Shown here: one piece after another, positions 14,503 to 25,386 of the stretch | How the letters are laid out: every line of letters begins with the position of its first letter | How positions within the stretch are numbered: the first letter of the stretch is position 1 | DNA from: an uncultured Rickettsiales bacterium | Lineage (GTDB): Bacteria; Pseudomonadota; Alphaproteobacteria; Rickettsiales; SXRF01 | NCBI GenBank assembly: GCA_964575095.1 | Contig: CAZNPA010000005.1 | Location: 26,958-90,957 of the forward strand | Length of the DNA stretch: 64,000 bases | Direction of reading: 5' to 3' | Position numbers and translations under genes: made by a program | Notes under the pieces: model-generated | What the model was told of the DNA's origin: nothing | Databases searched by the model: none | The model's input: the letters and a program-made list of their open reading frames with translations, nothing else

Positions 14503-14537
14503 ACTGTCAAAAAACTGTCACAATACTGTGATATAGT
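14503..14537 (+). promoter_or_regulatory. three helically phased direct repeats plus a -10-like box upstream of virB2
   Basis: ACTGTCA (14503), ACTGTCA (14514) and ACTGTGA (14525) are spaced exactly 11 bp apart and are followed immediately by TATAGT (14532-14537). The virB2-1 ATG is at 14569. Confidence 0.4.
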
Positions 14538-14568
14538 GTAAGTATAACCAACCAAAGGATAACGATTT

Positions 14569-14895
14569 ATGCTGCACACGAACAACAAGAACCGGCGCCT
14601 TATCATGGAAGCCGGCAGCTATCTGTTATTCGCCCTGGCGATCACGGTCATGTTTAGCTCTACCGCCTACGCGCAAGTCACTATCGGCGATACGCTGTGC
14701 GCCGTTTATGGCATATTGCAAACCAATGTCGGCCGCGGGCTGGCGACACTGGCGATCGCATCGCTTGGCATCGGCGCCATGCTGGGCAAAGTCTCGTGGG
14801 GCATGGCGGTTTTGGTCGGCGTCGGCATCGCCGGTTTATTCGGCGCCGATACGATCTTCGTCACTATTATGGGTTCCACCTACAACCACTGTTAG
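14569..14895 (+). CDS. virB2: T4SS pilin VirB2/TrbC family, paralog 1
   Basis: This 108-aa ORF has a signal peptide ending AYA, then NVGRGLATLAIASLGIGAMLGKVSWGMAVLVGVGIAGLFGA (two TM helices, the typical VirB2 core). Confidence 0.85.
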   Translation: MLHTNNKNRRLIMEAGSYLLFALAITVMFSSTAYAQVTIGDTLCAVYGILQTNVGRGLATLAIASLGIGAMLGKVSWGMAVLVGVGIAGLFGADTIFVTIMGSTYNHC

Positions 14896-14911
14896 TAGGA
14901 CAGGAAGACAC

Positions 14912-15241
14912 ATGCGCGCTATTAAAAACAATGCTGCCGCCTGCAAAATCGTCACCGCCGTTTTCTGCATTTCCGTTTTTTTCCTATTCCCGGCAGCATC
15001 GGCGCAGGCGCAAACGCTCACCGACCTGCTATGCGACGTGTGGGCGTTGATCGCCTGCGACATCGGCCGCGGCGTGGCGACGCTGGCCATCGCTTCGCTT
15101 GCCATCGGCGCCATGCTCGGCAAAGTCTCGTGGGGCATGGCGATTTCGGTCATGGTCGGCATCAGCATCATGCTGGGCGCGGCCTCGCTGGCCTTTACTT
15201 TCACCCACACGGTCGGCTGCCTGGCCAACCCCTGCATGTAA
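14912..15241 (+). CDS. virB2: T4SS pilin VirB2/TrbC family, paralog 2
   Basis: The internal ATG of ORF 14708..15241 gives MRAIKNN...AQAQTLTDLLCDVWALIACDIGRGVATLAIASLAIGAMLGKVSWGMAISVMVG. Confidence 0.8.
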   Translation: MRAIKNNAAACKIVTAVFCISVFFLFPAASAQAQTLTDLLCDVWALIACDIGRGVATLAIASLAIGAMLGKVSWGMAISVMVGISIMLGAASLAFTFTHTVGCLANPCM

Positions 15242-15260
15242 CCAACCGAAGGATAAAATT

Positions 15261-22531: not shown

Positions 22532-22534
22532 CGC

Positions 22535-23518
22535 ATGGCGACCCTCACCGCACTCGACACCTACCTCGCGCCGCTCAAGAAATATTTCTCGCAGCCGGAC
22601 GTCAGCGAAATATCAATCAATACACCGGGCGAAATCTGGGTCGAAATCGGCGGCGACATGGTGCGCCACAAGGTGCCCGAATTCAATCTTGAGCATTTAA
22701 AATCCTTGAGCCGCCTTGTCGCGCAGTCGACCGAGCAGAAAATCAGCGAGGAAACGCCGCTCTTATCCGCCACGCTACCCGAGGGCTACCGTATTCAGGT
22801 CGTGTTCCCGCCCGCCGTCGAATCTTCGACGATCGCCATGTCGATAAGGAAGCAAACTATTTTAAACCTCGACCTCGACCAGTACGAGGCCATCGGCGCC
22901 TTCCAGAACACCATCGTCGCCCGCGAGGAAAATCCGGTCGACCGGAAACTGCGGGCGATGCTTGATGCCGGCGCCGTCAAGGACTTCATCAAGCAGGCGA
23001 TTCTGGCCAGAAAAAACATCATCATCTCCGGCGGCACCTCGACCGGCAAGACGACGTTCTTAAACGCGGCGATGAAAGTCATCCCCGCCACCGAGCGCAT
23101 CATCACCTGCGAGGACGCGCGCGAAATCCAGATCCCGCACATCGAGAACCGCGTGCATCTGATCGCCTCGCGCGGCGGCCAGGGACGCGCTCAGGTCTCG
23201 ATGCAGGACCTGATCGAGGCCTGCCTGCGCCTGCGCCCCGACCGGCTGATGCTGGGCGAACTGCGCGGCAAGGAAGCCTTCACCTTCATGCGCGCCGTCA
23301 ACACCGGCCACCCCGGATCGATCTCGACGCTGCACGCCGACACGCCGATCCTGGCGCTGGAGCAGCTGACGTTGATGGTGATGCAGGCCGGGCTCGGCAT
23401 CACGCACGACCAGATAAAAACCTATGTCGAGAACGTCATCAATGTTATCATCCAGCTCAAGCGCGGCCCGCGCGGGATGCGCTATGTCTCGGAGATTTAT
23501 TTTAAGGAGAGTGCGTAA
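22535..23518 (+). CDS. virB11: VirB11 traffic ATPase
   Basis: This 327-aa ORF has an intact Walker A (ISGGTSTGKTTFLNA), Asp/His boxes (GELRGKEAFTFMRAVNTGHPGSISTLHA) and a Walker B region. Confidence 0.92.
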   Translation: MATLTALDTYLAPLKKYFSQPDVSEISINTPGEIWVEIGGDMVRHKVPEFNLEHLKSLSRLVAQSTEQKISEETPLLSATLPEGYRIQVVFPPAVESSTIAMSIRKQTILNLDLDQYEAIGAFQNTIVAREENPVDRKLRAMLDAGAVKDFIKQAILARKNIIISGGTSTGKTTFLNAAMKVIPATERIITCEDAREIQIPHIENRVHLIASRGGQGRAQVSMQDLIEACLRLRPDRLMLGELRGKEAFTFMRAVNTGHPGSISTLHADTPILALEQLTLMVMQAGLGITHDQIKTYVENVINVIIQLKRGPRGMRYVSEIYFKESA

Positions 23519-23606
23519 GGGATGTGGAGATGTGAGGATGTGGAGATGTGGAGTAAGAAACAATCTAATCCCCATATCCCCACATCCCCCTATCCCCACA
23601 TCCCCA
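23519..23606. repeat. inverted pair of 4x octamer tandem arrays between virB11 and virD4
   Basis: The left array is gatgtgga/gatgtgag/gatgtgga/gatgtgga (23521-23552). A 16-17-nt spacer follows. The right array is ccccatat/ccccacat/ccccctat/ccccacat (23570-23601), the reverse complement of ATGTGGRG units. Confidence 0.8.
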
Positions 23607-23613
23607 TTTTCTT

Positions 23614-25386
23614 ATGGCTGAAAACCTGAAACAATCCAACATCCGCCGCCAGCTGTTCAACCGGCTGGTGCTGATCGTCGTGATCGGCATCCTGCTTGTC
23701 GTGCCGGGCTATGTCGGGCTGGCGCTGGCGTTTGTCCTCAATTACGGCGACGCCTATTTCAACGCCATCTACGACCCTGAATATTTAATCAACCAGTATA
23801 TGGAGCTGCTGCGTTACTGGCTGCAATACCGCAGCCAGCTGCCGGACGAATTCACGCTGAAGCTGCTGGGGCCGCCGCTGGCCGGCATGGGCTTCACCCT
23901 GTCGATGCTCTATCTCGGCCGCGCGCCGCTCCTCGATTTCCGCCCGTTCAAGTTCAAGGAAAGCATTCACGGCGACGCGCACTGGGCGACCGAAGCCGAG
24001 ATAAGAAAAGCCAAATTGCGCGCCAAGAAAGGCATGCTGCTCGGGCGCACCGGCGCCAGCAATTATCTTATCTGCGACGACTTCCAGCATATCCTGCTCT
24101 TCGCGCCGACCGGCTCGGGCAAGGGTGTGGGCTTCGTCATTCCCAATCTATTGTTCTGGCAGGAATCGGTGATCTGCCACGACATCAAAATCGAAAACCA
24201 CGAGCTGACCAGCGGCTACCGCAAAAAAATCGGCCAGGAAGTGTTCCTGTGGAACCCTGCCGACCCCGACGGCATCTCGCACTGCTACAACCCGCTCGAC
24301 TGGATCAGCGCCAAGCCCGGCCAGATGGTCGACGACGTGCAAAAAATCTGCAACCTGGTATTGCCCGAGCAGGAATTCTGGCAGAATGAAGCGCGTTCGC
24401 TGATGCTGGGCGTGATCCTCTATCTTTGCGCCGTGCCGGAGAAAGTGCGCTCGTTCGGCGAAGTCGTGCGCACCATGCGCTCGGACGACGTCGTCTATAA
24501 CCTTGCCGTCGTGCTCGACACCATCGGCAAGCGCATCCACCCGGTCGCCTACATGAACATCGCCGCCTTTTTGCAGAAGGCGGACAAGGAGCGAAGCGGC
24601 GTGATCTCCACGCTCAACTCCGGCCTGGAGCTGTGGGCGAACCCGCTCATCGACGCCACCACCGCCCGCTCCGATTTCAATCTGCAGGTCTTGAAAAAGA
24701 AAAAAGTCAGCGTCTATTGCGGCGTCACGCCCGACAACCTGAAGCGCCTCGAGCCGCTCCTGAAAGTGTTCTACCAGCAGGCCACCGACTTTCTGACGCG
24801 CAACATCCCCAAGAAAAACGAGCCGTACGGCGTGTTGCTGATGATGGACGAGTTTCCGTCACTGGGCGAAATGCCGCAGTTCGAGGTCGGCATCGCCTAT
24901 TTCCGCGGCTACCGCGTCAAGCTGTTCATGATCGTGCAGGACACGCAGCAACTCAAAGGCATCTACGAGGAAGCGGGCATGAACGCCTTCCTCTCCAACT
25001 CCTATTACCGCATCACCTTCGCCGCCAACAACATCGAAACCGCCAACATGATCTCACAATTGATCGGCAATAAAACCGCGACGCAATATTCGCACAACAA
25101 GCCCAAATTCCTCGACCTGAACCCCGCCGCGCGCACGATCAACACCTCGGAAGTGCAGCGCGCGCTGCTCCTGCCGCAGGAAGTCATCACCCTGCCGCGC
25201 GACGAGCAGATCATCCTCATCGAATCCTTCGCGCCGATTCGCACCAAGAAAATTTTCTACTACAAGGACAGGTTCTTCATGCGCCGCATAAAGCCGCCAA
25301 CGCCGATTCCGGTGCAGGAGCCCTACGACCCGCGCAAAAACAAACCCGAAAAACCCGGAAAACCGGAAAAACCGGCAAAAGCATAG
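23614..25386 (+). CDS. virD4: VirD4/TraG-family type IV coupling protein
   Basis: This 590-aa ORF has N-terminal TM helices, an intact Walker A (FAPTGSGKGVGFVIPN) and Walker B (LLMMDEFPSLG). The C-terminus is a KPEKPGKPEKP tail. Confidence 0.92.
   Translation: MAENLKQSNIRRQLFNRLVLIVVIGILLVVPGYVGLALAFVLNYGDAYFNAIYDPEYLINQYMELLRYWLQYRSQLPDEFTLKLLGPPLAGMGFTLSMLYLGRAPLLDFRPFKFKESIHGDAHWATEAEIRKAKLRAKKGMLLGRTGASNYLICDDFQHILLFAPTGSGKGVGFVIPNLLFWQESVICHDIKIENHELTSGYRKKIGQEVFLWNPADPDGISHCYNPLDWISAKPGQMVDDVQKICNLVLPEQEFWQNEARSLMLGVILYLCAVPEKVRSFGEVVRTMRSDDVVYNLAVVLDTIGKRIHPVAYMNIAAFLQKADKERSGVISTLNSGLELWANPLIDATTARSDFNLQVLKKKKVSVYCGVTPDNLKRLEPLLKVFYQQATDFLTRNIPKKNEPYGVLLMMDEFPSLGEMPQFEVGIAYFRGYRVKLFMIVQDTQQLKGIYEEAGMNAFLSNSYYRITFAANNIETANMISQLIGNKTATQYSHNKPKFLDLNPAARTINTSEVQRALLLPQEVITLPRDEQIILIESFAPIRTKKIFYYKDRFFMRRIKPPTPIPVQEPYDPRKNKPEKPGKPEKPAKA

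Follow-up and report, generated by a model that had tools for sequence, protein, structure and literature searches.

The window (the entire 64-kb stretch of DNA analysed here) contains a row of ten vir genes, all on the plus strand and all recognised with Pfam, tblastn and reading of open reading frames (ORFs). The row starts with three pilin paralogs, virB2a (14569-14895; 108 aa, with a signal peptide and a match to Pfam TrbC/VirB2, E = 1.6e-14), virB2b (14912-15241; 109 aa, identified by tblastn against virB2a and virB2c and by translation) and virB2c (15261-15581; 106 aa, identified by translation and tblastn); the virB2a product is 69% identical to that of virB2c and 45% identical to that of virB2b. 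These are followed by a virB4 gene of the RvhB4-II type (paralog II, 15647-18076; 809 aa), which matches only CagE_TrbE_VirB in Pfam and no P-loop family, and by virB6 (18057-19643; 528 aa, Pfam TrbL/VirB6), with the start assigned to the ATG ahead of the signal peptide. The canonical paralog of virB8 (19771-20442; Pfam VirB8, 161 bits, start codon read) has its best match in the Rickettsia-type virB8 upstream of virB9-B10-B11-D4 and is followed by virB9 (20439-21206; 255 aa, full length, Pfam CagX, profile positions 1-198 of 198), virB10 (21212-22531; Pfam TrbI, 178 bits), the virB11 ATPase gene (22535-23518; Pfam T2SSE, with an intact P-loop, GGTSTGKTT) and the gene for the coupling protein VirD4 (23614-25386; Pfam T4SS-DNA_transf with 482 bits, TraG-D_C and TrwB_AAD_bind, with an intact P-loop, APTGSGKG). 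The spacer between virB11 and virD4 is filled by a long imperfect hairpin (23519-23604) with 33-nt arms that are 82% complementary. The junctions from virB2a to virD4 measure +16, +19, +65, -20 (overlap), +127, -4 (overlap), +5, +3 and +95 nt, and the row is flanked on the minus strand by a RidA-family gene (13806-14273) and by thiG/thiS (25860-26863). Pfam searches and ORF reading bear out the gene order, the tight or overlapping junctions and the housekeeping flanks (ridA, thiG) of the original prediction, whose gaps of 65 nt between the third virB2 and virB4 and of 127 nt between virB6 and virB8 are exact. The same order, B2(n)-B4II-B6-B8-B9-B10-B11-D4, is found again in approximately 16 related MAG loci.

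A tblastn search of the 1.8-Mb genome with the window proteins, confirmed with Pfam, places vir genes at four loci on three contigs. The second large island, on contig C1, encodes VirB3 (C1:277207-277509; PF05101, 83 bits), a second VirB4 (RvhB4-I, C1:274627-277104; Pfam and alignment) that is catalytically intact by its P-loop motif, and three VirB6 in tandem, also identified with Pfam TrbL/VirB6, so that the genome encodes four proteins of this family. A separate island on the same contig (C1:220709-222189) carries a second, divergent virB8 (Pfam, 60 bits) and a second virB9 (213 bits); the VirB9 proteins of the window and of C1 are both full length. A fourth virB2 pilin gene, detected by tblastn and Pfam, forms an island of its own on contig C2. 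Neither of the two large islands is complete: the window row lacks VirB3, VirB7 and an active VirB4, and the C1 island lacks pilins, VirB8 to VirB11 and VirD4; no unassigned ORFs were found in either. The original prediction described a compact, self-contained T4SS without VirB3 and VirB7, in which, unlike in rvh systems, everything sits in one operon. The row is real, and no ORF for VirB3, VirB5 or VirB7 lies within it; elsewhere in the genome, however, VirB3 and a VirB7 candidate are encoded, both on C1, and with four islands, duplicated virB4, virB8 and virB9, and four virB6 genes, the row appears to be one island of a scattered rvh system. The predicted absence of virB5 holds genome-wide, with no match to PF07996 at E <= 10. 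With regard to VirB1, the genome encodes three SLT-domain proteins, none beside a vir gene. A tblastn match on contig C9 that could be taken for a second virB11 is CpaF within a Tad/Flp pilus cluster and not a T4SS component; the presence of a Tad cluster fits the description of Mitibacteraceae and Athabascaceae (PMC9352585).

The VirB7-type candidate is a 52-aa lipoprotein encoded directly after the third virB6 of C1 (C1:270103-270261), with a lipobox (LGGC), SPC motifs and the P[ILV]N-type motif RPVN. In 10 related genomes, some of them from 3 other families, similar small lipoproteins are encoded in the vicinity of the virB6 ortholog. Nine of the 11 copies match Pfam DUF2706; the copy of this genome does so with E = 1e-4 and 22.5 bits, below the 25-bit cut-off, and also gives a weak match to NCBIfam LvhB7. 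The best members of DUF2706 are located at the Rickettsia virB7 position, between divergently oriented virB9-virB8 pairs (for this layout, see PMC2653234), and this gene context identifies DUF2706 as RvhB7; a literature search on DUF2706 returned nothing useful. Sub-threshold profile matches, together with position, lipobox and conservation, thus make the C1 lipoprotein a candidate VirB7. It is well conserved and occupies an unexpected position after the virB6 array, which is a useful addition for specialists. The candidate was found after the motif was relaxed and the scan limited to the vir islands; a genome-wide scan for small lipoproteins with the strict P[ILV]N[KRQ] motif yields spurious frames only. 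The virB6-virB8 gap was considered as an alternative location of virB7, but neither the 127 nt of the window nor the equivalent spacers in 17 related loci contain a lipoprotein ORF, and what resembles a conserved peptide there is actually a conserved DNA element.

The two VirB4 paralogs of this genome are approximately 30% identical, and both are present in 36 of the 36 good genomes in the sample of the family and the order. The alignment shows that, in the window protein, the Walker A motif is replaced by a conserved DFNSFxD with an insertion, which contains no Walker A lysine, and that the Walker B motif reads VLQEAW in place of VLDEAW; D[FY]N[ST]FxD is a family-specific, strictly conserved Walker A replacement. 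Judging from this motif loss, the window VirB4 is a predicted ATPase-dead paralog. In a tree of 28 sequences with paired paralogs, including 10 other genomes of the order, the paralogs that adjoin virB3/virB6 form one side of a 100/100 split, and the window VirB4 belongs to the other side, with CoA8N_M8 and the Rickettsiaceae-type RvhB4-II; this tree replaces a first one of 14 sequences, a sampling too thin to separate the paralogs. The close relative CoA8N_M8 is listed with both RvhB4 among basal Rickettsiales in the RvhB4 table (Table S1) of Verhoeve et al. 2024 (PMC11077975). Among the paralogs, evolution is slowest in VirB4-I, whose branches are the shortest (lengths of 0.09-0.4 vs 0.5-1.6), so that the C1 protein does not show a pattern of decay. 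The ATP site of VirB4-II, as the alignment shows, has decayed independently in several families of Rickettsiales and is intact in others.

The row was originally taken for a single operon, but two putative promoters are recognisable in it, one before the pilins and one before virB8, so that it probably comprises at least two transcription units, a prediction that draws on motifs and their conservation. The first predicted promoter, P1 (14504-14537, plus strand), was read in the sequence and consists of three 11-bp-phased direct repeats (CTGTCAaaaaa CTGTCAcaata CTGTGA) abutting a TATAGT -10 box, an arrangement that is Pho-box-like. A two-repeat box, CTGTCA-N5-CTGTCA with no more than 1 mismatch, has 13 matches at 12 loci of the genome, given that the two overlapping matches at P1 represent a single three-repeat site; a version with 2 mismatches and an extended -10 box lies upstream of virB3 on C1. 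These boxes do not define a classical phosphate regulon: the genes downstream are mostly orphans and not pst. The second element, P2 (19677-19709, plus strand), a predicted promoter/operator, consists of TTAATACTTTGTTTATGAAT, 7 nt and TATAGT, and aligns in the window and in 18 related loci at a comparable distance from virB8. It occurs once in the genome at no more than 2 mismatches and accordingly is not a regulon box. The 15-aa ORF MLPCIVNTLFMNFRL, to which the original prediction drew attention in the gaps of the row, does exist; it is contained in P2 and is the translation of this conserved promoter element.

The hallmarks of rvh systems given in the Methods of PMC11077975 are duplication of B4, B8 and B9, multicopy B6 and lack of VirB5. 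All of these are found in this genome, namely duplicated VirB4, VirB8 and VirB9, multicopy VirB6, no VirB5, and scattered islands, so that the originally suggested likeness to the rvh style was a correct lead. As far as the available text of two published studies shows, the rvh system is placed at the root of Rickettsiales (PMC9352585, PMC11077975), and the systems of Mitibacteraceae and Athabascaceae (Schön et al. 2022, PMC9352585; Verhoeve et al. 2024, PMC11077975), with synteny presented in Fig. 3b of the published work (PMC9352585/PMC11077975), have the same duplications, multicopy VirB6 and no VirB5; they are likewise chromosomal and without a relaxase, and nothing in these portions of the studies differs fundamentally from the present genome. 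Relative to the same portions of the text, the additions are the placement of VirB7 behind the final virB6 in the island of virB3, the D[FY]N[ST]FxD motif, the Pho-box-like promoters and the virB8 element. The host itself is probably Mitibacteraceae-like, on the strength of one MAG shared with the published table and of gene content; in an order-level group it is placed with genomes that bear the Rickettsia-specific virB9-virB8-virB7-virB8-virB9 island.

The rvh archipelago of Rickettsia (Gillespie et al. 2009, PMC2653234) shares the virB3-virB4a-virB6(n) island, two virB8, two virB9, the virB8-virB9-virB10-virB11-virD4 row, a small VirB7 lipoprotein, the lack of VirB5 and a second VirB4 (VirB4b) whose NTP-binding cleft is damaged, although Walker A is damaged in a different manner in the present protein. 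In Rickettsia (PMC2653234), virB4b and virB2 are solitary, virB7 lies between two virB8 genes, virB9b is truncated and VirB6 proteins span 670-1150 aa, whereas here three virB2, virB4-II and one virB6 form a single row with virB8-D4, the virB7 candidate follows virB6, both VirB9 are full length and VirB6 proteins span 435-535 aa. The VirB/VirD4 system of Agrobacterium tumefaciens shares the P-type components VirB2-4, VirB6-11 and VirD4, but here there is no VirB5, no MOBP/Q/F relaxase and no T-DNA-type substrate, and the genes are distributed over four loci with duplications and one predicted dead VirB4. In the virB/D systems of Anaplasmataceae, arrays of virB2 paralogs adjoin virB4-2 and the virB8-D4 operon is separate; several pilin paralogs likewise lie beside the second VirB4 here, but with the virB8-D4 unit adjacent and in a host that is not an obligate intracellular bacterium.

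Taken together, the gene content, motifs and phylogeny indicate that the window row is very probably the largest of four islands that jointly encode one rvh-type P-type T4SS of a basal, free-living-type member of Rickettsiales (Mitibacteraceae/Athabascaceae grade). The window island would contribute three pilins out of four, a single VirB6, VirB8, VirB9 and VirB10 as the core that spans the envelope, the ATPases VirB11 and VirD4, and the ATPase-dead RvhB4-II, and the C1 island would supply VirB3, the active RvhB4-I, three VirB6 and the VirB7 lipoprotein; the third island would add the divergent VirB8 and the second VirB9, and the fourth another pilin. The Pho-box-like promoter would drive the pilin/VirB4-II/VirB6 unit, with a similar box heading the virB3 island, and the separate conserved element would drive virB8 to virD4. 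A genome-wide search with PF03432, PF08751 and PF03389 (the families Relaxase, TrwC and MobA/MobL, covering MOBP/Q/F) yields no match, which bears out the original statements on the absence of a relaxase and of conjugation for MOBP/Q/F. The context is not that of a mobile element either, with RidA and ThiG/ThiS on the flanks, no adjoining tRNA found and a GC content in keeping with that of the remaining window. The lack of a MOBP/Q/F relaxase, the housekeeping flanks and the conservation in vertically related MAGs mark the locus as a vertically inherited part of the chromosome with no role in conjugation.

The most likely function of this rvh-type machine is contact-dependent protein export rather than DNA transfer: proteins recruited by VirD4 would be exported into a contacted cell, which may belong to competing bacteria or to protists. 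The XVIPCD domain (PF20410), through which the effectors of the bacteria-killing X-T4SS of the Xanthomonas type interact with VirD4, has no match in the genome. DNA uptake or release, the option raised originally, either as ComB-like competence or as secretion of the GGI type, would agree with the absence of a detected relaxase and with the KSPC motif of the VirB7 candidate, which is presumably associated with ComB7. ComB-type uptake systems, such as ComB of H. pylori, are not known to have VirD4 or VirB11, and DNA release of the GGI type requires a relaxase; with VirD4 and VirB11 both present and their P-loops intact, such a role is improbable. Rickettsial VirB7 and VirB9 do resemble ComB7 and ComB9, and competence was not excluded (Gillespie et al. 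2009, PMC2653234), but in classical Rickettsiales protein effectors are bound via RvhD4 (PMC11077975). VirB2 is present as four divergent paralogs, of which three are tandem copies, and this might instead indicate pilins amplified for surface variation in what would be mainly a variable adhesion pilus, similar to Bartonella Trw, with little or no translocation. Trw itself is not known to have VirD4 and has VirB5 and VirB7 amplified as well; here VirB5 is absent and VirD4 is intact and kept at 68-84% identity across the related loci, which makes this reading very improbable. That the row, compact and kept as a unit in approximately 16 related loci, is a self-sufficient minimal T4SS without VirB3, VirB7 and VirB5, and the C1 cluster a separate or decaying system, is hardly credible, because the only VirB4 of the row has lost the Walker A lysine and has an altered Walker B, VirB3, VirB7 and an active VirB4 are kept elsewhere in every good relative sampled, VirB4-I evolves slowest of the paralogs, and a similar promoter box lies upstream of both islands.

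Within the preferred reading of one rvh machine encoded by four islands, the duplicate VirB4 invites a speculation to which we assign a low probability. In the R388 cryo-EM structure, the inner-membrane complex reportedly comprises a central VirB4 hexamer bound to VirB3 and an outer ring. In this family, the two paralogs might split these two inner-membrane positions, with a PhoB-like regulator that co-switches both islands together with orphan secreted proteins as cargo. VirB4-I, encoded with VirB3, may then be the central motor, and the dead VirB4-II, encoded with the pilins, may serve only as a structural subunit, either in the outer position or in pilus assembly, a role with which its remodelled yet strictly conserved D[FY]N[ST]FxD pocket would agree. 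Given that the ATP site of VirB4-II has decayed in some families and is intact in others, the order would then offer a natural step series of this subfunctionalisation.

A compact virB row without virB3 and virB7 in such MAGs is tempting to mis-annotate as a minimal T4SS when it is one rvh island. To the known rvh system, the present analysis adds the location of VirB7, the independent loss of the VirB4-II ATP site in several families and the shared promoters. The repeated loss of this site provides a comparative handle on the role of the duplicate, and the promoter signals that link two islands could point to the cargo of the ancestral rvh machine.

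A six-frame ORF listing and Pfam searches confirm the originally predicted row of plus-strand type IV secretion system (T4SS) genes, namely three tandem TrbC/VirB2 pilin genes (14569-14895, 14912-15241 and 15261-15581), virB4 (15647-18076), virB6, virB8, virB9 (20439-21206), virB10 (21212-22531), virB11 (22535-23518) and virD4 (23614-25386). Stop-to-stop reading of the frames has virB6 begin with the ATG at 18057, ahead of a signal peptide, and virB8 with the ATG at 19771 (MNAPLKEATDSKNWYKDRYQ); with these starts, the 65-nt and 127-nt gaps reported earlier are reproduced exactly. 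A RidA-family gene on one side and thiG/thiS on the other correspond to the housekeeping flanks (ridA, thiG) described before. The row has the base composition of its surroundings, and no tRNA was found beside it. The wider neighborhood includes two adjoining paralogous DUF2336 genes on the minus strand (9685-11947; 385 and 374 aa), upstream of a CoA-transferase pair, and, about 5 kb downstream of virD4, a gene for a TPR protein with a GT41 (O-GlcNAc-transferase-like) domain (30771-32759).

No VirB3, VirB5 or VirB7 ORF was found within the row. A VirB3 profile search of the whole genome (1.80 Mb in 10 contigs, rated 100% complete) nevertheless yields one clear match, with a score of 83 bits, on contig C1, and a tblastn search started with the window proteins, followed by ORF listing and Pfam, identifies further islands: virB3 with a second virB4 (normal P-loop), three tandem virB6 genes and a small lipoprotein gene (C1:270103-277509); a divergent virB8 with a second, full-length virB9 (C1:220709-222189); and a fourth virB2 (C2:28521-28874). 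As claimed, virB5 and a relaxase are missing: the VirB5 profile and the relaxase families PF03432, PF08751 and PF03389 have no match anywhere in the genome. Of the three SLT-domain proteins that are VirB1 candidates, none is encoded beside a vir gene. Except for VirB5, the four loci jointly encode a full P-type apparatus, with VirB1 represented by candidates only. The lack of virB3 and virB7 thus holds for the row, but VirB3 and a VirB7-type lipoprotein are encoded on C1.

All four VirB2 paralogs (14569-15581 in the window and C2:28521-28874) contain one cysteine about 8-12 residues past the point where the signal peptide is predicted to be cleaved, plus one or two at the very C-terminus, a pattern that suggests a disulfide tying the pilin ends together. 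A weaker virB11-like match on contig C9 was rejected as a second virB11 because it is CpaF within a complete Tad/Flp pilus cluster (C9:1628-13100; CpaB, CpaC, CpaE, CpaF, TadB/C and TadE-like), in keeping with the biofilm-type lifestyle that has been described for basal Rickettsiales.

[quoted passage not shown] 2024, PMC11077975). The source genome shows every one of them, which bears out the predicted likeness to rvh; the system is a further member of this published kind. The original prediction drew a contrast with rvh by placing everything in one operon; this is incorrect, given that the vir genes are spread over four loci and the row itself probably comprises two transcription units. The observation is true of the locus, not of the system.

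A scan of species-representative genomes identifies 32 related loci, all in metagenome-assembled genomes (MAGs) labelled as Rickettsiales, Alphaproteobacteria or Pseudomonadota bacterium. In about 16 of these, the genes run B2(n)-B4II-B6-B8-B9-B10-B11-D4; about 6 break after virB6. Table S1 in Verhoeve et al. 2024 (PMC11077975) includes one of the 32, CoA8N_M8, as a member of the basal lineages, with both RvhB4-I and RvhB4-II. In a 41-genome sample of the family and order, two VirB4 paralogs are present in all 36 good-quality genomes, and the C1-type virB6 is present in 40 of 41. In a tree built by maximum likelihood from 28 VirB4 sequences, to which ten other genomes of the order contributed both paralogs, a 100/100 branch sets apart the paralogs encoded beside virB3/virB6 (RvhB4-I); on its other side are the Rickettsiaceae-type second paralogs (RvhB4-II) together with CoA8N_M8 and the window VirB4. 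The RvhB4-I branches are short (0.09-0.4) and those of RvhB4-II long (0.5-1.6). Judging by these sequences, the tree agrees with the single ancestral VirB4 duplication depicted in Fig. 3c of Schön et al. 2022 (PMC9352585).

For the window VirB4, Pfam detects only the N-terminal CagE/TrbE/VirB domain, and the C1 paralog additionally matches P-loop families. The GPTGAGKT motif of the latter is replaced in the window protein by a conserved D-F-N-S-F-x-D and a short insertion, a replacement shared with more than 100 metagenomic homologs, and the Walker B motif VLDEAW is changed to VL(H/Q/N/R)EAW in the same set. The window virB4 is therefore predicted to encode an ATPase-dead paralog; the P-loops of VirB11 (GGTSTGKTT) and VirD4 (APTGSGKG) are intact. 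Damage of the same kind has been reported for Rickettsia VirB4b (Gillespie et al. 2009, PMC2653234). The second paralog retains intact Walker motifs in several families (G030, G034, G037, G038, L030 and L031) and has partly damaged ones in others (G035, G026 and G036); the motifs are destroyed in differing ways in G028, G039, L032, L036 and the window's family, which has its own conserved motif. Mapped on the VirB4 tree, these states suggest that VirB4-II lost ATPase activity several times independently after the duplication. In L030 (9923-15219), from a more distant MAG, the order B2-B4-B6-B8 onward is kept, both Walker motifs (A and B) of the operon VirB4 are intact, and VirB6 (965 aa) carries a long hydrophilic tail, like its counterparts in classical Rickettsiales.

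The small lipoprotein is a 52-aa ORF (MTHTRTIRFLLVAVTFTLLGG|CSNPVEDLKSPCVGTDDSPCVHRPVNTGLSS) directly after the third C1 virB6, with a lipobox and an RPVN motif. In ten related genomes, including three from other families of the order, similar small lipoproteins (consensus ...ACSNxxxDLKSPCVGAEGSPCDRRPVNDW) are encoded no more than about 1.5 kb from the virB6 ortholog. Nine of the 11 copies match Pfam DUF2706 just under its cut-off, and one matches NCBIfam LvhB7 (E = 1e-5). A search of 81 genomes of the order with the DUF2706 profile returns three strong matches, which are small ORFs between leftward virB9-virB8 and rightward virB8-virB9 pairs, the position occupied by virB7 in islet C of Rickettsia (Gillespie et al. 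2009, PMC2653234). This shared position identifies DUF2706 as the predicted RvhB7 family and the C1 lipoprotein as its distant member, a candidate VirB7.

Putative promoter P1, upstream of the first virB2 (14504-14537), consists of three 11-bp-phased repeats CTGTCAaaaaaCTGTCAcaataCTGTGA abutting TATAGT. A second element, P2 (TTAATACTTTGTTTATGAAT-N7-TATAGT), lies in the 127-nt virB6-virB8 gap, is aligned in 18 related loci and the window, and is unique in the source genome; the 15-aa ORF noted in this gap is present but represents only the translated P2. A separate P1 and a conserved P2 imply that the row is probably two transcription units, an arrangement that mirrors classical Rickettsiales, in which B2/B4-II and B8-D4 form separate islands. 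A two-repeat box, CTGTCA-N5-CTGTCA, occurs at 12 genomic loci, mostly upstream of orphan genes rather than pst genes. On C1, virB3 is preceded by a two-mismatch box with an extended -10 box (CTGCCAcaaaaCTGTAA ... TGgTATAAT), the Pho-box-like direct repeat before this island (C1:277594-277610, minus strand) being at a fixed distance from the -10 box. The Pho-box-like repeat recurs, again with constant spacing to a -10 box, at 11 other sites, mostly before small orphan proteins, several with signal peptides (e.g., C4:8778, C6:54124 and C2:369437); these are possibly co-regulated cargo or accessory proteins. A long imperfect hairpin (23519-23604), whose 33-nt arms consist of GGATGTGGAGATGTG repeats and are 82% complementary, exactly occupies the virB11-virD4 spacer from the base adjoining the virB11 stop, and could be a dispersed palindromic element of the genome or an mRNA processing/attenuation signal. 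A GC-rich stem flanks a set of nested palindromes (CCCTCTCCCTTT/AAAGGGAGAGGG; 14302-14377) between ridA and the virB2 promoter, an interval that also has a second small hairpin (14466-14494).

With a coupling protein and two ATPases predicted by motif to be active, and with relaxases of the three tested families absent, the machine would export VirD4-recruited proteins in a contact-dependent manner. The presence of VirD4 and VirB11 makes DNA uptake of the ComB type unlikely, and the conservation of VirD4 does the same for a pure adhesion pilus of the Trw type. For protein export, no XVIPCD-type effector domain was found in the genome, so that a Xanthomonas-like recognition signal is apparently not used. 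To the known rvh system, these results contribute three modest additions, the location of VirB7, repeated ATP-site decay in VirB4-II and the promoter signals; the varied Walker-motif state of VirB4-II across families is a comparative point apparently absent from the available portions of published rvh accounts. For the basal lineages, Schön et al. 2022 (PMC9352585) and Verhoeve et al. 2024 (PMC11077975) suggest a role in killing bacteria or in protection against protists.
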